Positions 29,989-40,197 of a stretch of 46,955 nucleotides of DNA are shown here, piece by piece. A program made the position numbers and the translations under genes. The DNA lies in the UHGV virus genome UHGV-2105699; one strand, given 5' to 3'. The notes beneath the pieces are model-generated. The model saw nothing but the letters and a program-made list of their open reading frames with translations, was not told the origin of the DNA and ran no database searches. The number at the start of each line of letters is the position of its first letter. Position 1 is the first letter of the stretch. The stretch is from a virus.

Positions 29989-30257
29989 TGACCGGTTCAG
30001 AATCAAGAAAAGCACAAGATCTCTTTTTTGGTATTATTGATTATTACGCTAATCTTTCAGGTACAGACATAACTGAAGATCAGTTGAAACAACGCGATGA
30101 AATAATAAAAAGTGGATCTATAGAATGTGATGATTCTTTAGATAGTGAAATCTTAGATTTGCAAGATCAATTTCTTGCAAAAAAAGAAAGTAACATCATA
30201 AATAAAGATCAAATAGCGATAGTTGAAAAAGCACTATCGCTATTAAAAAAATCTTAA
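29988..30257 (+). CDS. hypothetical acidic protein (89 aa), AT-rich, co-acquired with fiber distal domain
   Basis: Start overlaps fiber stop (ATGA); composition matches the AT-rich fiber C-terminus. Confidence 0.35.
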   Translation: MTGSESRKAQDLFFGIIDYYANLSGTDITEDQLKQRDEIIKSGSIECDDSLDSEILDLQDQFLAKKESNIINKDQIAIVEKALSLLKKS

Positions 30258-30273
30258 TTATCATACTGGTAGT

Positions 30274-30310
30274 AACGTGCATCTCATTTGATGCACGTTA
30301 TATTTATTTA
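30274..30310. terminator. terminator between convergent tail-fiber and SSB transcription units
   Basis: AACGTGCATC (30274-30283) pairs with GATGCACGTT (30290-30299), loop tcattt, followed by ATATTTATTT. Confidence 0.7.
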
Positions 30311-30316
30311 AATCAC

Positions 30317-32930: not shown

Positions 32931-33451
32931 TTTGTTCTCCTACCGTGGTTTTTATGGAATCCATGCTTAACCTCAGCTTCCGCTCTTGCTTTTGCCGCAT
33001 TATTAAAATCAACAAATAATCCAAGATAAATGTTTTTACCTTTGACTTTTATTTGAGCCATCCATTTCTTCCTGTCTGAGTTCCATGTCACACCAGTAAC
33101 TCCAGAGGAGTTATTGGTTGCGATACCTTGATTCATGCCATTCCCAAGATTATTAACTAGCCTGAGATTTTCTATTCGATTATCATCACGAACATGATTG
33201 ATGTGATCAATCTGCATACCTCCTTGTATTGGCTCGTTATGCATTTCCCATATGATTCTATGTGCACGATAAAGACCCCTGCCAATTCTGACCATTACAT
33301 AACCAAACCTTGGGCGCTTGTTGCCTGCCGCTTTATATGCAAACCTAGTATTCCAAGTAGCTGCTGACTTCTTCGTCTTAAAAGTTGAAACATTTCTCTC
33401 CTTCCATATCAGAAGGCCATTTTCATAGTAAAAATAATCATGCCAGTTCAT
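32927..33451 (-). CDS. HNH homing endonuclease with AP2 domain (copy 3 of 3)
   Basis: YRAHRIIWEMHNEP...IDHINHVRDDNRIENLRLVNN and AP2-like SGVTGVTWNSDRKKWMAQIKVKGKNIYLGLFVDFNNAAKARAEAE; ~80% nt identity to copy 1 over the HNH core. Confidence 0.8.
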   Translation of the reverse strand: MNWHDYFYYENGLLIWKERNVSTFKTKKSAATWNTRFAYKAAGNKRPRFGYVMVRIGRGLYRAHRIIWEMHNEPIQGGMQIDHINHVRDDNRIENLRLVNNLGNGMNQGIATNNSSGVTGVTWNSDRKKWMAQIKVKGKNIYLGLFVDFNNAAKARAEAEVKHGFHKNHGRRTN

Positions 33452-35069
33452 TTTTTTGTCCGAATTCTTTTCTGTGGATGATATCGCGGCCTTTATCGTT
33501 AAAACGATGCGTTATGCGTTTTGGCGCGCGGATAAGACCAGTGAACGCCATGAATGCTTTTGCGTTGTGGCAATTCATGAGGTTATCAATCATATTCCTG
33601 TCTGATACGTGGTTTAGTAATCCTTTAATCTTAAACTGATTTTTAAGGTACTTCTCCTGCCTGCCAAATGGATAGAAAACCTCACTGGCCCAGCCATCTT
33701 TGCCGTTTTCTTTCGTGATGAAGTAACGATAAACAACGCCCTTCTCATCTTTCGTTAGCTCAATCTTGAAATCCTTGACTTCAGTCCATTCATTATCCGT
33801 ATAAGCACGCTCATTGAGAGCCGCGTTAGGGTCGCGCAAAACGTGATCGCATTGACGGCAATAACGAGCTGTCGGGTCGTTTTTTGTGCCGCAACCATCA
33901 TCAAAAATACGGATGCCGTGCTTGTCGAAACCGCAGCGAATGAAGCTGAAAAACTCTTCGCAACGACCATCTGGCGACGTTGAGTCTTTACCGATGCAAC
34001 GCCGTGCATATGGGCTGTTCATCGTCTGGCATTTAGGGCATGGAACCTGCTCTCCGCTACGCTTGGCGCGCTGCGCTTCTGCTTCCTCAAGAATAGGGTC
34101 TTCGTAGAGTTGGCCAAGCTCAAACATTGTTCCCGAGAAATCGAGAACCAGATGATCTTCTTTATGATACCCGGCTTCTATGTGTTCTTTTTTAAGTAGT
34201 CGCATACCCCTGCCCAATAATTGGACAAGAAGAGTTAACGACATTATTTTCCTTAGTATGACGCTTACATCCCACAAAGGTATGTTTACACCTGTTGTTA
34301 ACGCCGCAATTTGGAATGTGTATTTTATTTTTCCAGTGTAGGCATCTTTTAGAGCCTTCCGGCGAGCTTTCATGCCCATATCTTCAGTTACTATCGCATA
34401 GCTTCCTTCTGGTAAATATTTAGCGGCTTCCAAGCAATGCTTTTTCCCGGCACATGTAATCAATACCCCGTTCCTGTTTTTGGTCAACTCCATAACCTTG
34501 AGCATGATTTTCTGTGTAAGCGTACCTTGCTCAAGGATTTCTTTCTGCATCTGCTTTAGTTGTTCGGCAGTGAAATCCTGTGTGCCATCGCTTCCTGATG
34601 CCTCAAATGCTGACAGATCGTAATGCAAATCATCAATGTCATGCAGGCCAAAAATCGTCGGCACAAGAAACCCAATATCAACAAGATATTTGGTGTCAAT
34701 GTTTACTATTTCATGTTTCCAGTAAGCACCCTTAATCGAGTCTGTGCCACGAAAGGGACTGCCTGTATATCCAATAACGATGACATCGTGACCGTATTTA
34801 GCCTTACATCTGCGGTTAAGTTCAGTCATTATTACGCCATATTGCGTTTCAGGACTTTCGCTTACCACGTCCTCCCAGTTCATCTGGTGGCAGTTATGAG
34901 CTATGAATCCGTTTGCAACAAAGTTGTGATGGGTAGGCATCTCTATATCCCACACCATCTCATCACCAATTTCATTTATTGACTCGATTACTTTTGATTT
35001 TGTATTCCACGCCATCTTCCATGTGGTCAGCAATTCTTTTAAAAAACTCATCCTGCGCTTCCTCATCAA
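33438..35069 (-). CDS. helicase C-terminal fragment carrying an N-terminal intein C-half (IntC) - C-extein begins CHQMNW (DECH motif II), contains motif VI QLLGRGMR and a C-terminal multi-Cys zinc-finger region
   Basis: ORF begins (TTG 35069 / ATG 35066 / ATG 35048 with SD GAGGAAG) with ...KVIESINEIGDEMVWDIEMPTHHNFVANGFIAHN|C = intein blocks F and G followed by +1 Cys; same reading frame as the N fragment (36518-35069 = 1449 = 3x483). Confidence 0.6.
   Translation of the reverse strand: MMRKRRMSFLKELLTTWKMAWNTKSKVIESINEIGDEMVWDIEMPTHHNFVANGFIAHNCHQMNWEDVVSESPETQYGVIMTELNRRCKAKYGHDVIVIGYTGSPFRGTDSIKGAYWKHEIVNIDTKYLVDIGFLVPTIFGLHDIDDLHYDLSAFEASGSDGTQDFTAEQLKQMQKEILEQGTLTQKIMLKVMELTKNRNGVLITCAGKKHCLEAAKYLPEGSYAIVTEDMGMKARRKALKDAYTGKIKYTFQIAALTTGVNIPLWDVSVILRKIMSLTLLVQLLGRGMRLLKKEHIEAGYHKEDHLVLDFSGTMFELGQLYEDPILEEAEAQRAKRSGEQVPCPKCQTMNSPYARRCIGKDSTSPDGRCEEFFSFIRCGFDKHGIRIFDDGCGTKNDPTARYCRQCDHVLRDPNAALNERAYTDNEWTEVKDFKIELTKDEKGVVYRYFITKENGKDGWASEVFYPFGRQEKYLKNQFKIKGLLNHVSDRNMIDNLMNCHNAKAFMAFTGLIRAPKRITHRFNDKGRDIIHRKEFGQKNELA
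34893..35015 (-). other. intein C-terminal half (about 41 aa: MAWNTKSKVIESINEIGDEMVWDIEMPTHHNFVANGFIAHN), blocks F/G
   Basis: Classic HNF..NG...HN terminal motif immediately followed by Cys (34892-34890); length and pattern comparable to naturally split IntC halves. Confidence 0.6.
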
Positions 35070-35841
35070 AAATACTTACACAAAACATTTCGCGCTTTTT
35101 CGTTCCGCCAATGTAAGAATTAACTCGCGCTCCATTTAACCCAAGAAAATCATTCAATGCATTGGCAACTTCCCAGCATTCATCCTCAATGAACGCCTCG
35201 GTGTGAATAAATACCTGCCTGTACTTGCCGTAAGATATTGATGAATGCCCATCATCACCAAAATAAACAGCCCAACCAACTTCGTTTAACTCCCTGCATA
35301 TCTTTCCTATGTTGTACCCATTTGCTGAGTCGCCATATTTCTCAGCGTACCTGTCAAGTATCTTTGTGCATGATGTTCTAACCTGGAACCATTTGTCACC
35401 GAATCCATGATTATCCCTTTCGCTGTATGCTGCATTAAGTTTTTTGAATCTTGCGGCCTTGCACAGAGCGTGTTCTTTATTTCCCATATTCCACATCAGT
35501 CTGTGCGTTCCCCTTTTTGTGTTCTTAATCAGACACCCATCACCAGCAAGAGCGGCGAGTATGTTTTGATGCAAGAAGTAATCAATAACAAGGCCGCTAT
35601 CAACCGTTGAATTATGATGACCAGACCTAAAATCAACATAGTAACCGTAAGGATTTTCCAGCAATGCACTCAATCCTTTGCTCGCGTGCGGAAAAACCTT
35701 CTCGCCACAGCCACACTTGCACGAAGGAGCTTTGTCATAAATCTGTCCGACGAGCCATCTAACGACAGAGTCATCCCAGCCTTTAGTTTTCCCGCTTCTA
35801 CCCAGCAGCCGTTTGAATAAAGTTTGTGTGTACTCGTGCAT
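34972..35841 (-). CDS. LAGLIDADG-type homing endonuclease ORF lying between/overlapping the two intein halves, in the -1 frame relative to them
   Basis: Two LAGLIDADG-like motifs (NILAALAGDGCLIKN and GWAVYFGDDGHSSISY); ATG 35841 preceded by strong SD GGAGAGGAAATAAAATG; overlaps IntN ORF by 172 nt and IntC ORF by ~95 nt. Confidence 0.55.
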   Translation of the reverse strand: MHEYTQTLFKRLLGRSGKTKGWDDSVVRWLVGQIYDKAPSCKCGCGEKVFPHASKGLSALLENPYGYYVDFRSGHHNSTVDSGLVIDYFLHQNILAALAGDGCLIKNTKRGTHRLMWNMGNKEHALCKAARFKKLNAAYSERDNHGFGDKWFQVRTSCTKILDRYAEKYGDSANGYNIGKICRELNEVGWAVYFGDDGHSSISYGKYRQVFIHTEAFIEDECWEVANALNDFLGLNGARVNSYIGGTKKREMFCVSIFDEEAQDEFFKRIADHMEDGVEYKIKSNRVNK

Positions 35842-36518
35842 TTTATTTCCTCTCCGCCTTTTAATTTAACTGATGATACGCGTTTTATGCCATTAGTAAA
35901 TACTCTTTTAGGTTTGTGGTACACCCACTCACCAGCGACCTCATCCAAGCACTTGATTTCTTTGTTTATTAAGCTATCGTCATCAATTCTCACCCATCCA
36001 TCACTCGTCAATATCAGTGCATCACCAGTCAGGCACTCATCCATAAGAACAAAGCGAGGAGAAAAATCGGAAAGCGCACCTTTAGAAAGTAAATTACCTG
36101 ACTCGTCCTTCTTATCGAAAAGGCCATTTATTATTGTTCCCTCCGTACCAGCAATAAGCGGGTATGCCGTTGACTTTCTGCCAAGAGCAGCGCTAAAAAG
36201 TGAGTTTTTCACACTCAGATTCCACAGTTCCTCCGCATCCTGCTCAATAATTTCTGGCTGTCTTGCAATAACAAGCCCTTCCCACCCCATATCCTGAAAG
36301 CGCCGCGCAATCATGGCAATCATGATCGTCTTACCAGCACCTACCGATGCGGTAACGAAACTTGGCTTAGGGTCTTTGCCAAACTTGCGGATAACTTCAG
36401 CCGTCTTTTCATAAACCAGCCATTGATAAGGTCGTGGCTCAATCTCACCCGTATTAACAACTGACCGCAATTTGTCTATATCCAGCTCCGCAATCATTGC
36501 GTCTATTTTATGCGTCAT
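35670..36518 (-). CDS. helicase N-terminal fragment (Walker A ASVGAGKT; motif II LMDE) fused to intein N-half
   Basis: 161 extein residues ending VLMDE, then intein block A; ORF terminates 121 aa later. Joining exteins reconstitutes DECH-box motif II (VLMDE + CHQ). Confidence 0.6.
   Translation of the reverse strand: MTHKIDAMIAELDIDKLRSVVNTGEIEPRPYQWLVYEKTAEVIRKFGKDPKPSFVTASVGAGKTIMIAMIARRFQDMGWEGLVIARQPEIIEQDAEELWNLSVKNSLFSAALGRKSTAYPLIAGTEGTIINGLFDKKDESGNLLSKGALSDFSPRFVLMDECLTGDALILTSDGWVRIDDDSLINKEIKCLDEVAGEWVYHKPKRVFTNGIKRVSSVKLKGGEEIKCTSTHKLYSNGCWVEAGKLKAGMTLSLDGSSDRFMTKLLRASVAVARRFFRTRAKD
35673..36035 (-). other. intein N-terminal half (about 121 aa) beginning CLTGDALILTSDGWVRI (block A) with block B IKCTSTHKLY
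   Basis: Cys1 codon at 36035-36033 directly after extein residues FVLMDE; TxxH block B; ends at its own stop codon (35672-35670). Confidence 0.6.
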
Positions 36519-36536
36519 AGCAACTAACCTTTGTTG

Positions 36537-36585
36537 ATGTTTCTACGTCAGTTAGCTTATACTCAATCTACACCAACAATCAAGG
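36537..36585. promoter_or_regulatory. divergent promoter region between helicase (leftward) and primase (rightward): TTTCTACGTCA (36541-36550) and TCAATCTACACCAACAATCAAGGG (36563-36585)
   Basis: Same two-copy arrangement as 15010-15056; leftward reading gives TTGATT-N16-TATAAG followed by TGACGTAGAAACA leader. Confidence 0.4.
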
Positions 36586-36592
36586 GTCAATT

Positions 36593-37487
36593 TATGAGAT
36601 ACGACTGGAAGGAAATCGAGCCAAAAATGATCGGCAACTGGCAGGCTGCCATCATGTCTATCGTCAATGTGGATAGCAGAGTTTTCAATGGCAAGCACCA
36701 ACCATGCCCATCATGCTCAGGAAAAGACAGATATCGCTTTGATGACAACTTCGAAACAAAAGGCGATGGCGGTGCGATATGCAATCAGTGCGGTTCCGGC
36801 AGCGGCATGAACTGGCTGATGAAACTTTCTGGCATGAACTTCCCCGAAGCGCTGGAGGCGCTGGGAGGATTTCTGAATATGCACCCACGCGAAAAACTTG
36901 AGGCGATTAGAAAGCAACTTCCAAAGGTCAACCATGCTTCTGACTACCTGACAGAGGCAGAAGTGGCGACCATCATGGAAAAAGCAGGAGGCGACACCAT
37001 AACCGGCAAAACTGGTGAACTGGTGGCGATACCGCTCTATATGGCTGGAACCATGACGCCATGCAATGTAGCTTTTCTGGCAGACGATGAAAGCGTGTCA
37101 TTTCGCGCGGGTTTTAGCCATGAGTACACTCGTGGAAGACTTACGCGCGGCGCGGTGACACCCATCGGCGATAAGACAGAATGGACATACCTTGTTGCGG
37201 ATTACTTCGATGCCTGGCGAGCACACCGACTTACCGGTGCTCATGTGTGGTGCTGCTGGTCGTCGGAAAATATGTGGGAAGTTGTGCGTGATGTGAGCGA
37301 TGAGCAGCGAGCCAAACTACGCTGTATCATTAATAATAATTTCGATGAGGTATGCGCAGCCGAGAATGCAGGTCTTCAGATACTAATTACTGATGACGGG
37401 CGGGATATTCGTTACAGTGGCGCCATCAGAAAAAGGTTGTATAAACCAGAAGAGCTATTTGAAGCACTAAAAAACAAACCCTCCTGA
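36593..37487 (+). CDS. putative DNA primase (zinc-ribbon plus TOPRIM-like region)
   Basis: Start at MRYDWKE (36593). CPSCSGKDRYRFDD...GGAICNQCGSGSGMNWL zinc-binding element typical of phage/plasmid primases; ILITDDGRD acidic cluster. Confidence 0.5.
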
Positions 37488-37735: not shown

Positions 37736-39285
37736 TTTAGTCTCGGATTCAGGTAAACAGTGTTATTAAGGAATACGCAATATCCATCTTCTTCAAGAGA
37801 CGGCAAAACATTTGACTTTAGTCTGTCATAAATATGCGGTATACCTTTGAATGGTCTAACGTTTTTTAGCGAATCATACAGCCATTTTACCGTGACATTT
37901 GTCTTTCCTTTTTGCGCAGCTGTGCGCAATTTTTCAGCAACTACATCAATTTCTGATTTCTCGCCAGCGTATCCATTTGACTCAACGGCATCGGTAAATG
38001 TTTTTGTTAGTGCATCATAAACGCTTATGGCGCGGCTTATATGCTCCTCACCAATAATTTTTGAGCGACGACCGCCATCGCACCAGTTTTCAGCGGCATG
38101 GAATATTGCTGAAAGCCTGATTATCTGTTTGTCAGCCTTACCCATGGCGCCACGAAGCAAAACGTGATCCCATTTACCACCTGGCAGGAAATTCTTTTCC
38201 CACTGGTTTCGTAAAAGCCCAATCATGCGCTGCGATTCTTTAGCTAGGGAGAAAACAACCTTCTCAGAAGCCACAAGGTTATGCACAAACCTGGCATATT
38301 CTGCCTTTAGTTCTTTAGGCATTGGCTTACTTACCGGGCAATCATTTTCTACATCCCAATGCTCACGATAACCCAACATTGACTGCTCACGAAGCATCAG
38401 GAATCGCTCTGACAATCCATTACCCCTGTCTCCAGCGGAAAGAATGGCATCAATACTTTCATCCTGCGCAATGACGCTGATGTTACCAAGCACATAGCCA
38501 GATGAAACACCGCGACCAACGCGAGCTGATCCAACAAACCCGCCATCCCAGCCTTTCAGGATTACCTCTGCGTTAGACTTGCCACCATCTTTGCCATATG
38601 AAAGGCCAAGACAGGTATTTAAAACGCTTGCCTCATCACTTATCAGGTTGAAAAAACCACCCTCATGAATTGCCTGGTGCTGCACCGCTTCTGGTGTTGC
38701 GTCGGTTAACGGGTAGGTGATGGTGTAAAGACTTTCCAGTTTCTCCTTCTCTTTCGCAATGTCATCTCCAATGATGGCTTTCGCGTTCTGATTCGTCGCC
38801 TCCTTGTAAGCCTTCATCAGGTCTTCAATGCGAATGTTTATCTTTGCAATTTCTTTCTCCATCTTTTTTGACAGGTTGTCATACTCAATTTTTATCGGGT
38901 TCATGTGCATTGAGTTGATGGCTGTCTTGCCAGCTGATGGTGGCTGCGACGTCACCACATACAAGGAAACAGGCAATTCAGAACCGTAGTATTCAACGCT
39001 AAAATTTCGCGTCATGGCACTGGCTACGCAGCCAAGCAGGTGCATGAATGACGTGCTAACGGGGAATTGAACAGCCCTAGCCGCTGCAACTGAATATCGC
39101 GTTATCAGGTCTTTCCTGTTGTCGCTGGTAAGCTCTATCTCCGAGTATGTTACATCCCTCTCCTGCCCTTCCTTGATTTCCGGCCACATGTTATGGCTTG
39201 GTGTCATGCCATGGTGAATGGCGACGCGCGCCGCAGAGGTGTGCGCCTCTCTTGCCTGATTGAAGATTTCCTGTGCCGCAATCAT
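37732..39285 (-). CDS. P-loop ATPase, DUF3987-like replication protein (primase/helicase-associated)
   Basis: 517 aa; deviant Walker A SQPPSAGKT; size and context next to primase and putative origin. Family assignment is from memory of DUF3987 features and not verified. Confidence 0.4.
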   Translation of the reverse strand: MIAAQEIFNQAREAHTSAARVAIHHGMTPSHNMWPEIKEGQERDVTYSEIELTSDNRKDLITRYSVAAARAVQFPVSTSFMHLLGCVASAMTRNFSVEYYGSELPVSLYVVTSQPPSAGKTAINSMHMNPIKIEYDNLSKKMEKEIAKINIRIEDLMKAYKEATNQNAKAIIGDDIAKEKEKLESLYTITYPLTDATPEAVQHQAIHEGGFFNLISDEASVLNTCLGLSYGKDGGKSNAEVILKGWDGGFVGSARVGRGVSSGYVLGNISVIAQDESIDAILSAGDRGNGLSERFLMLREQSMLGYREHWDVENDCPVSKPMPKELKAEYARFVHNLVASEKVVFSLAKESQRMIGLLRNQWEKNFLPGGKWDHVLLRGAMGKADKQIIRLSAIFHAAENWCDGGRRSKIIGEEHISRAISVYDALTKTFTDAVESNGYAGEKSEIDVVAEKLRTAAQKGKTNVTVKWLYDSLKNVRPFKGIPHIYDRLKSNVLPSLEEDGYCVFLNNTVYLNPRLK

Positions 39286-39543
39286 CTAAACCTCGTACTC
39301 AGTGGCAAATGATTCATGTGGGTTTTCAGATAGCCATTGCTTAGCTTTAAGTACGGCTGCGTTTGCCTCCTCTGCCGTTTCAAACCTGCCAAGCTCATAC
39401 CTGAGTCGGTTAACAACAATCCTAGCCCTGAAATATCCAGAGTGCTTATGGAAGTCAACCCCTCTAAACCCGGTAGATGATGGCCTTCCGCCACCGGATG
39501 ATGAAAGTCTTTTTTTCTTAAGTAGCTTTCCATGTGCAGACAT
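39286..39543 (-). CDS. free-standing AP2-domain DNA-binding protein (HNH-less)
   Basis: TGFRGVDFHKHSGYFRARIVVNRLRYELGRFETAEEANAAVLKA is an AP2-type fold like the C-termini of the HNH-AP2 endonucleases; stop/start coupled to the DUF3987 gene. Confidence 0.55.
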   Translation of the reverse strand: MSAHGKLLKKKRLSSSGGGRPSSTGFRGVDFHKHSGYFRARIVVNRLRYELGRFETAEEANAAVLKAKQWLSENPHESFATEYEV

Positions 39544-39559
39544 AATTTACCCTCGCTCA

Positions 39560-39950
39560 CGACTTTTAACCATGATACCCCATAAATTACCCTCCGTAAA
39601 GCGGCCACAAACAAACTTTGGTTAGGGTTAACTGGGTTAACTGTGGGGAAGGCCATCTTCCCCAGGATTTTTTACTGTAAGTGTATGTATTATAATAATA
39701 ATAGTAGTAGTTGGGTTAATTGGGTATATTATTATTCATATTATAGATTTTATTTTAACAATAAATTAACAAATGAATTATATGGGTTATATATAAGGGG
39801 ATATGGGTGAAAACATACCCTGCTGCCCCTAAATTGTTAAATTACAATATTAACATTAACTTACAGAGAAAAATCTGGGGCAATTAACCTGCCCCAGCAC
39901 CTTACCCACAGTGGTAAAACTTACCCCAGGCGGATTTATTTTCACCATCA
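39560..39950. repeat. AT-rich noncoding region with GGGTTAA-type iterons, a GGGGAAG/CTTCCCC hairpin and AT tracts - putative replication origin
   Basis: ttaGGGTTAActGGGTTAActg (about 39620-39643), GGGGAAGgccatCTTCCCC (about 39643-39662), gtatgtattataataataatagtagtag, ttGGGTTAAttGGGTAT, atGGGTTATatataaGGGGATatGGGTG, and CTTACCCACAG / CTTACCCCAGG direct repeats; no ORF >60 aa. Confidence 0.4.
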
Positions 39951-39952
39951 TA

Positions 39953-39981
39953 TTGACGTAGATTGGGCGCCATCGTATAGT
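39953..39981 (+). promoter_or_regulatory. sigma70-type rightward promoter TTGACG-N17-TATAGT with conserved TAGATTGGG spacer start
   Basis: TTGACG 39953-39958, spacer 39959-39975 (tagattgggcgccatcg), TATAGT 39976-39981; mirror image of the promoter at 15024-15052. Confidence 0.6.
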
Positions 39982-40011
39982 TACCACACCAACAACAAAG
40001 AGGTGATGAAA

Positions 40012-40197
40012 ATGACCAAAGCAATCTACACGCGCACTCAACTGGAGCCAGAAATGGGCGCAGTGAAAGCGCAAAACTTTATGATGGCGCAGGCAATGCA
40101 TGCATACAGCAACGGCAAGCGCGTCTGTCGCGTTTTTAGTGGCGAAGGCAAGCACAGAGTGCTTGAGCAGGTTATCGTGTCATCTGGTGGAAACTAA
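40012..40197 (+). CDS. hypothetical protein (61 aa from ATG 40012)
   Basis: SD AAGAGGTGA 5 nt upstream; first gene after the promoter. Confidence 0.4.
   Translation: MTKAIYTRTQLEPEMGAVKAQNFMMAQAMHAYSNGKRVCRVFSGEGKHRVLEQVIVSSGGN

Follow-up and report, generated by a model that had tools for sequence, protein, structure and literature searches.

A mirrored array of TGGG-type boxes around AT-rich DNA as a candidate bidirectional replication origin in Roufvirus-like Klebsiella phages

What is the function of the AT-rich gap from which the two gene arms of virus genome UHGV-2105699 diverge? We analyzed this genome as a single 46,955-bp stretch (the window), which represents a virulent, Roufvirus-like Klebsiella siphophage of ~47 kb whose arms diverge at 39.5-40.0 kb. 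An original prediction, made from the letters of the sequence, had proposed that positions 39560-39950 contain an iteron-type replication origin. No origin had previously been defined for these Klebsiella, Salmonella, and E. coli siphophages, which are therapeutic candidates, or for T1-like phages. After comparison with relatives, an origin is the most probable and best-supported explanation of this locus, and we hold with moderate confidence that a conserved element at 39622-39930 serves as a bidirectional replication origin between two divergent early promoters.

We examined the composition and repeats of the locus. All of the repeats, the inverted repeat, the AT tract, and the promoter on which the prediction relied are present. 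The tandem GGGTTAACTGGGTTAACT lies at 39625-39642 and is scored by Tandem Repeats Finder as a period-9 repeat (2.1 copies, 100% match). It is followed by the inverted repeat GGGGAAG-gccat-CTTCCCC at 39645-39663, the AT tract at 39683-39709, TTGGGTTAATTGGGTAT at 39711-39727, GGGTTAT...GGGGAT..GGGTG at 39784-39809, CTTACCCACAG at 39901, and CTTACCCCAGG at 39919. The composition is also as distinct as had been claimed, with a G+C content of 0.35 for 39560-39950 and 0.242 for 39665-39875 compared to 0.47 for the whole window. The lowest-GC stretches of 100, 150, and 200 nt in the window all begin at 39666-39681 (17-24% G+C), placing next to the repeats the kind of low-stability, AT-rich DNA that accompanies iteron origins.

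Two further statements required adjustment. The absence of open reading frames (ORFs) above 60 amino acids (aa) holds for the core, but the margins are entered by longer mechanical ORFs (39282-39656, 39302-39625, and 39856-40155). A 55-aa GTG-initiated ORF inside the core (39643-39810) is missing from relatives having the same core, and no ORF in the core is conserved across relatives. The limits of the region also shift, in that the conserved element occupies 39622-39930, whereas 39544-39620 is variable leader and promoter DNA that moves with a small-gene cassette.

The repeats themselves can be reduced to one family. GGGTTAA alone is weakly enriched, with eight copies in the window against 3.4 expected and three of the eight in this region. 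The GGGTTAA repeats, the arms of both hairpins, and the CTTACCC repeats all belong to a single box, (T/A)GGG(G/T)NA, read on either strand. The CTTACCC repeats and the hairpin, previously listed as distinct repeats, are thus present but represent the same box on the other strand. Likewise, the "perfect hairpin" is not a separate feature; it is one of two dyads, each built from two inverted boxes. The box [TA]GGG[GT][TCA]A occurs 11 times within one 320-nt interval, at most three times in such an interval elsewhere, and at most six times in 2000 random placements. This density (11-13 boxes per ~320 nt versus 0.4-0.7 expected) and the spacings of 9, 11, 9, 12, and 20 nt are those of a clustered iteron array. 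The dyad TGGGG-N9-13-CCCCA is found only twice in the window (0.12 expected), at 39644 and 39876, both within the element. No other iteron-like repeat array was detected elsewhere in the window.

Viewed as a whole, ~14 copies of the extended box (T/A)GGG(G/T)NA(A/G) form a roughly mirror-symmetric array that brackets the least stable DNA of the genome (Table 1). On the left, the third copy of a tandem triple (39624-39664) doubles as the 5' arm of the left dyad, and this left module of box, dyad, T-run, and CTGTAAGT has its mirror image on the right. The AT-rich core includes two invariant TTAACA hexamers (39755-39760 and 39766-39771) that are 11 nt apart, and another AT-rich stretch, with an A-run at its end, separates the inner box cluster from the right dyad. 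Copies of the element from relatives are aligned by nhmmer with their own reverse strand at E-values down to 1e-10.

Table 1. Coordinates of the element, its flanking promoters, and neighboring genes in the window.
Feature	Position	Strand	Remarks
Zn-ribbon primase (DnaG/T7-type)	36531-37487	+	Further left than the helicase gene
DUF3850/ASCH-like gene, 77 aa	37502-37735	-	Directly downstream of the helicase gene; "RNA-binding protein" in relatives' annotation
DUF3987/MCM-like superfamily 6 (SF6) helicase, 517 aa	37732-39285	-	Pfam DUF3987, 124 bits (cut-off 27); C-terminal winged helix
AP2-like gene, 85 aa	39286-39543	-	Swappable cassette separating helicase gene and element
Candidate leftward promoter P_L, TTTACG-17-TATCAT	39572-39600	-	Consensus scan; variable left flank
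Boxes L1 (AGGGTTAAC) and L2 (TGGGTTAAC)	39624-39641	+	Tandem, 9-nt spacing
Left dyad TGGGGAAGGCCATCTTCCCCA	39644-39664		Box L3 plus inverted box L4
Left AT tract	39665-39711		T-run, near-invariant TAAGTRTATGTA, (ATA)n(GTA)n; TATAAT on + strand at 39691-39696
Central box pair C1 (TGGGTTAAT) and C2 (TGGGTATAT)	39712-39729	+	In all 28 relatives
AT-rich core, candidate unwinding element	39730-39795		Invariant ATTATTAYTCATATTATAG, which is TATAAT on - strand at 39745-39740
Inner box cluster	39796-39830		+ strand, C4 (AGGGGATAT) and C5 (TGGGTGAAA); - strand, C6 (TACCCTG) and C7 (GCCCCT)
Right dyad TGGGGCAATTAACCTGCCCCA	39876-39896		232 nt from left dyad; sixth pair mismatched in 11/28
Boxes R3 (TGGGTAAGG) and R4 (TGGGGTAAG)	39900-39928	-	The CTTACCC repeats of the original prediction; R4 is TGGGGTA in 28/28 relatives
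Rightward early promoter P_R, TTGACG-17-TATAGT	39953-39981	+	TTGACGTAGA invariant; also in metagenomic contig L047
First rightward gene, DUF7540, 61 aa	40012-40197	+	Pfam, 124 bits; start per ZX4 annotation; variable right neighbor of the element
Large terminase	43423		Reached after small + strand genes starting at 40012; 3.4 kb right of the element

The conservation of this arrangement argues for a shared binding motif. A sensitive BLAST search located the element in 62 phage records (Roufvirus, Macdonaldcampvirus, Shuimuvirus, Caminolopintovirus, and Akiravirus), and we aligned 28 distinct copies from several genera. Across these 28 copies, the G-runs and the positions of 13-14 boxes are invariant, and the flanks interchange at each position among GGGTTAA, GGGGCAG, GGGGTAA, GGGGAAG, and GGGTAAG. 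At L1 and L2 the flanks swap among GGGTTAA, GGGGCAT, GGGGTAA, and GGGTAAC around invariant G-runs, and in the inner cluster the box positions are kept as the sequences vary (TACCC, GCCCC, or AACCC). Judged from the alignment, this is the behavior of one putative binding motif with a tolerant flank. Conservation extends to the AT-rich core and to the two TGGGG-N11-CCCCA dyads, which lie 231-232 nt from each other, whereas the genes on both sides are swapped.

The gap region and its flanks are 95-97% identical to those of Klebsiella phages BUCT610 and ZX4 and the Roufvirus type phage pIS4-A; they gave no match among E. coli genomes, and the conserved element gave none on plasmids. Compared to the Salmonella-phage group, the AT core is ~80% identical and the helicase gene ~77%, while the small gene together with 39544-39620, and the rightward genes, cannot be aligned. 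Nucleotide identity to this group drops to ~35% at the DUF7540 gene. Salmonella phage Vi II-E1 (AM491472) has the same element, in which two copies of GTGGGGCAACCAACCTGCCCCACGA, 25-nt repeats 231 nt apart, correspond to the window dyads at 39644 and 39876; in its record, by contrast, these repeats are marked without a function. In several Salmonella-group phages (L004 2518-2542 and 2749-2773; L009, L035, and L037), the two dyads have the same sequence over 21-25 nt, down to the asymmetric loop. Being direct rather than mirrored copies, they suggest concerted evolution of the two sites. The element was not found on viral contigs that lack the helicase. An invariant 19-mer of the element occurs in 11 unrelated viral contigs, none of which fits the element profile, and we regard these as chance matches in AT-rich DNA.

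The two dyads could be read differently, as convergent intrinsic terminators that insulate the promoter region, with the other repeats being incidental. Both hairpins do score as terminator-like, with the + strand hairpin at 39644-39664 followed by GGATTTTTTA and the - strand hairpin at 39897-39875 followed by ATTTTTCTCT. An intrinsic terminator should keep a T-run behind a stem that is itself conserved and shows compensatory changes. Conservation fails for the T-run that follows the left hairpin, and sequences of the S13a and STGO-35-1 types have lost the A-run preceding the right one by deletion. Among the 28 sequences, each dyad has five invariant pairs. The sixth pair on the left is A-T in 11 sequences and C-G in another 11, the other 6 having a C.T mismatch; the corresponding pair on the right is mismatched nearly twice as often (Table 1). 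Moreover, both hairpins face inward, where no annotated transcript reaches them, and their arms are the same box that is found unpaired elsewhere in the element. Given the unconserved T-runs and mismatched stems, the dyads are better read as paired boxes, and we consider a terminator pair very unlikely.

A small noncoding or primer RNA encoded by the core would also account for its strong conservation, its promoter-like hexamers, and folding that exceeds that of shuffled sequences. The folding scores are, in fact, equal on the two strands (z = -3.46 and -3.40), indicating symmetry at the DNA level, as dyads in DNA would predict. An Rfam covariance scan assigned no family, returning just two chance-level long noncoding RNA matches, neither of them in the core. 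A conserved terminator is likewise missing, and the long-range inverted repeat that would close such an RNA is confined to one group. Finally, L047 and Pectobacterium phage Ymer lose the AT-core sequence yet keep the box architecture. An RNA product therefore appears extremely improbable.

The more distant lineages allow the plan of this candidate origin to be separated from its sequence. In L047, whose helicase is 64% identical, the AT-core sequence has diverged, yet the layout is intact. A tandem triple of TGGGGTAA has a dyad at its end; then come a central pair with its AT tract, inverted boxes, another dyad, and the TTGACGTAGA promoter. Ymer (helicase 50% identical) carries three tandem copies of GTGGGGAACC, the third of which opens a long dyad, followed by the pair GTGGGGAAAATGGGTAAT and an AT tract, all located at the head of the operon that contains the helicase gene. 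Pairs resembling C1-C2 and followed by an AT tract are thus present in both. Vibrio phage 1.278.O, with a helicase of only 26% identity, follows the same plan with a different repeat, GATGACACG, present in at least eight copies in both orientations. These include a tandem triple at 9-10-nt spacing, and they surround a 25%-GC center in a divergent 570-nt gap ahead of a small gene and the DUF3987 gene. TGGG-type boxes therefore occur at helicase identities of 100%, 86%, 64%, and 50%, and GATGACACG replaces them at 26%. That the plan is fixed while the repeat changes with the helicase lineage is iteron-like behavior, and wherever this lineage of MCM-like DUF3987 helicase occurs, the layout is retained with it.

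A possible counterpart exists in the T1-like Escherichia phage Tls (AY308796), where a ~790-nt noncoding stretch heading the DUF3987 operon falls at both ends of the record (L049 2480-2603 and L050 1-590). Besides two tandem copies of TAGACCGATTGGTC, it has numerous GATTK repeats, GGGT boxes within an AT-rich core, two or three copies of GTGAACA, and a TTGACG promoter, and it may correspond to the Klebsiella phage element. A re-annotation of TLS found no origin-like repeats in that genome (PMC11447400).

The principal alternative to an origin is a purely transcriptional control region. In this case, the boxes would be operators or activator sites of an early regulator that coordinates P_L and P_R, possibly together with promoters in the AT core. 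The AT-rich DNA would serve as UP elements or bent DNA, and replication would begin elsewhere or by recombination. The setting agrees with such a role. The element is flanked by two sigma-70-type promoters, of which P_R is invariant, and the outermost boxes begin ~25 nt upstream of each -35 hexamer. Promoter-like sites number seven compared to 2.2 in shuffled sequences, with an invariant TATAAT on both strands of the core. The Vibrio phage tandem repeats overlap the -35-like ATGACA of the helicase operon, and a DNA-binding AP2-like protein is encoded next door. The position of P_L is itself uncertain, as S13a has an analogue (TTGTGA-17-TATGAT) and none was flagged in the left flank of IME207.

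Several observations are harder to reconcile with regulation alone. With approximately 14 mirrored boxes over 300 bp, the array goes far beyond typical operators, and the P_R core promoter is free of boxes. Relatives differ in the candidate regulators encoded on either side yet have unchanged boxes, and neither dyad copies nor box clusters occur at the other promoters of the genome. A transcriptional role would also leave unexplained why the boxes bracket the least stable DNA of the genome. We consider an exclusively transcriptional function unlikely, although clearly more plausible than terminators or an RNA. The two roles would in any case be compatible, as iteron origins commonly autoregulate.

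Some evidence nevertheless tempers the assignment of an origin. The element lies exactly between divergent promoters, where operator arrays are also expected, and the invariant TATAAT hexamers, if they act as promoters, could explain part of the core conservation. The overall dyad symmetry of the copy in the window is modest (self-alignment score of 37 versus 26.5 +/- 5.9 for shuffled sequences, z ~1.8). The helicase gene of T1-like phages (36-40% identity in the helicase) and of Ymer lies deep in a co-directional operon and does not adjoin such a region, so the association is with the head of an early or replication operon rather than with the helicase gene itself. The winged-helix domains of MCM proteins are often not sequence-specific DNA binders. 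GC skew, suggested earlier as a check, is evidence neither way. The cumulative curve does have its minimum at 39-40 kb and its maximum at ~30 kb, but the sign tracks the strand of individual genes, as illustrated by the + strand primase (+0.09 amid values of -0.1 to -0.26). Because skew flips with gene strand, it cannot separate replication from transcription or coding bias.

Packaging provides another possible role, in which boxes bound by the small terminase flank a cleavage region. Boxes around a central region are generally known from the pac sites of SPP1 and P1. In addition, six independently deposited relatives were opened inside the element: ZCKP8 (MZ440881), ZC2 (OP481875), ZCKp20p (OP373729), KpV2811 (MT682064), Akira (MK599416), and Ymer (OP748252). 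Both ends of the Tls record fall in the equivalent noncoding stretch, and the large terminase is encoded on the right-hand side. PhageTerm, applied to two relatives, reported no defined termini and permuted headful packaging (PMC11769527, PMC9901506). Related phages thus package permuted genomes by the headful mechanism and have no fixed ends, so that the element is not a genome terminus, and we rejected a physical end (pac or cos) at this site. The record openings are also scattered (window positions 39692, 39717, 39722, 39731, and 39769), and the ZCKP8 and Akira junctions read as contiguous or nearly so. A pac site would usually be in or beside the small-terminase gene, for which PHROGs gave no assignment here; 3.4 kb of variable small genes intervene, and the conserved partner of the element is the helicase operon. 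A pac function is accordingly very improbable. The openings within 39690-39770 are likely attributable to a drop in coverage or an assembler break in AT-rich DNA, or to deliberate opening at the strand switch.

If the element is an origin, what recognizes its boxes? The original prediction had named the AP2-like protein or the DUF3987 ATPase. The identity of the former as an AP2 DNA-binding protein is partly upheld: its Pfam score of 24 bits is below the cut-off of 33.3, but PHROG matches to the DNA-binding modules of HNH endonucleases (E = 3e-12) support it, and its comparison to the WRI1 AP2 domain in the PDB gave E = 0.02. The pIS4-A record annotates another reading frame over this gene (L002 151-429; window 39282-39656, - strand) as a 92-aa "hypothetical protein"; relatives conserve the AP2 frame and not this alternative. 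The gene occupies a cassette slot that is AP2-like in the window, ZX4, KlebP_265, S13e, IME207, and Akira and encodes an unrelated 72-77-aa protein in S13a, STGO-35-1, ST1UNAM, and MK54. In L047 it is filled by still another unrelated protein, in Vi II-E1 by a pseudogene. Box variants, compared by eye, do not follow the cassette type. Because the boxes are unchanged when the cassette is swapped, the AP2-like protein is not their general binder, and the only DNA-binding candidate adjoining the element is dispensable. No O- or RepA-type initiator was found beside the element, and no Orc1/Cdc6-like protein was identified. Of the earlier proposal, then, the array with the least stable DNA at the head of the replication operon stands, now with an architecture shared across genera, and the role assigned to AP2 does not.

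The helicase is the nearest gene that is conserved wherever the element occurs, being 86-99% identical and always 517 aa in 10 relatives. An AlphaFold2 model had a predicted local distance difference test (pLDDT) score of 90.5, and almost all of the PDB matches listed by Foldseek were MCM subunits (best E = 1.8e-5, template-modeling (TM) score ~0.36); a sequence search of the PDB gave nothing, and only the fold search gave matches. The last ~80 residues form a helix-strand-helix-helix-strand-strand unit. Folded alone, the C-terminal 82 aa match winged-helix domains, including those of MCM4 and MCM8, with weak E-values and TM scores of 0.5-0.66. The DUF3987 score, an AAA+ fold most similar to MCM, and the C-terminal winged helix together place the protein with MCM-like SF6 helicases. 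DUF3987 proteins have been predicted to be SF6, MCM-related replicative helicases that carry a winged helix-turn-helix at the C terminus (PMC4889955), and a PriCT-DUF3987 protein unwinds DNA 5' to 3' (PMC11724360). That this winged helix reads the boxes is our guess. The winged-helix residues are KWLYDS in the TGGG-box lineages and xQLRD in T1-like proteins, a weak hint of a link to box type.

In a possible mechanism, the helicase would use its C-terminal winged helix to recognize the boxes and would assemble to either side of the AT-rich tracts. Transcription directed outward from P_L and P_R would add negative supercoiling between the promoters, as in the twin-domain model. The AT tracts beside the central boxes would then melt, and helicase rings would load in opposite directions. 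The phage DnaG/T7-type primase would prime, and a host polymerase would extend, relatives having been reported to lack a DNA polymerase. Boxes near or downstream of promoter-like sites would probably feed back on expression of the replication operon, as plasmid iterons do. In its strongest form, this proposal would make the MCM-like helicase its own initiator: the winged helix would read TGGGKNA, and the mirrored arrays would place two head-to-head rings at the AT tracts without an ORC-, Cdc6-, DnaA-, or DnaC-type loader. We offer this last idea tentatively and regard it as doubtful.

The surrounding genes complete the description of the locus. The primase, which had been counted in the leftward block, is in fact encoded on the + strand. 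The DUF3850/ASCH-like gene keeps its position beside the helicase gene across several genera. Further left, the gene of a DEAD/DEAH-type helicase (33438-36518, - strand) is split into three overlapping ORFs: 35670-36518 with a ResIII N-terminal part and HINT/intein-N, 34972-35841 with a LAGLIDADG endonuclease, and 33438-35069 with an intein C-splicing region and Helicase_C. In relatives this helicase is a single unbroken gene of 637-645 aa, and the arrangement in the window resembles an intein, split or frameshifted, that carries a homing endonuclease. The second most AT-rich spot, 29989-30316, is where the gene arms converge. It contains five or six GATC sites in a small AT-rich ORF and a perfect 11-bp bidirectional terminator hairpin at 30273-30300. 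Its interval 30000-30310 was considered as a second origin candidate and rejected, consisting of this ORF and terminator without repeats.

A 300-bp element with a clear box consensus and a confidently modeled helicase makes it experimentally approachable to ask how DUF3987/MCM-like phage helicases find and open DNA. For annotation, the element provides a conserved landmark, and its AT-rich sequence may be the reason that assemblies of these phages are frequently opened here. If the helicase is its own initiator, the system would represent a minimal bacterial-virus counterpart of MCM double-hexamer loading, common to Roufvirus- and Skatevirus-like phages and perhaps extending, with other repeats, to T1-like phages.

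Among known systems, we compared the element with the ori/crr of satellite phage P4 (alpha primase-helicase) and with the core origins of SV40 and papillomaviruses (large T antigen and E1). On our side, the comparison covers architecture and helicase fold. In each of these known systems, the initiator is a replicative hexameric helicase with its own DNA-binding domain. Short direct and inverted boxes lie beside AT-rich, easily melted DNA, no separate loader is encoded, and dyad symmetry would let two rings load in opposite directions. The helicase described here differs in being MCM-like (SF6, DUF3987) rather than superfamily 3, and the primase has a gene of its own on the opposite strand. TGGGKNA takes the place of TGTTCACC or GAGGC as the box, a single locus stands in place of ori plus crr, and binding of the helicase to the boxes is putative.

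Archaeal oriC regions, with their origin recognition boxes (ORB/mini-ORB), orc1/cdc6 genes, and MCM, resemble the element in that inverted G-rich boxes bracket an AT-rich region near an AAA+ replication gene and in having an MCM-type helicase with a C-terminal winged helix. They differ in that no Orc1/Cdc6-like initiator was identified in the phage, the box sequences are unrelated, and the phage has a bacterial host and presumably relies on that host's polymerase. The lambda ori (four iterons and an AT-rich region within gene O, activated by transcription from lambda P_R) and iteron plasmids (P1 oriR, pPS10, and R6K) share repeats approximately one helical turn apart beside an AT-rich unwinding region, with likely contributions from nearby transcription and likely autoregulation through the repeats. 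Unlike them, the phage element lies between genes and not within an initiator gene, no initiator of the O or Rep type was found beside it, and the boxes are short (7-9 nt), occur in both orientations, and form mirrored arrays. The element is most probably an undescribed member of the class of origins that combine repeats with AT-rich DNA.

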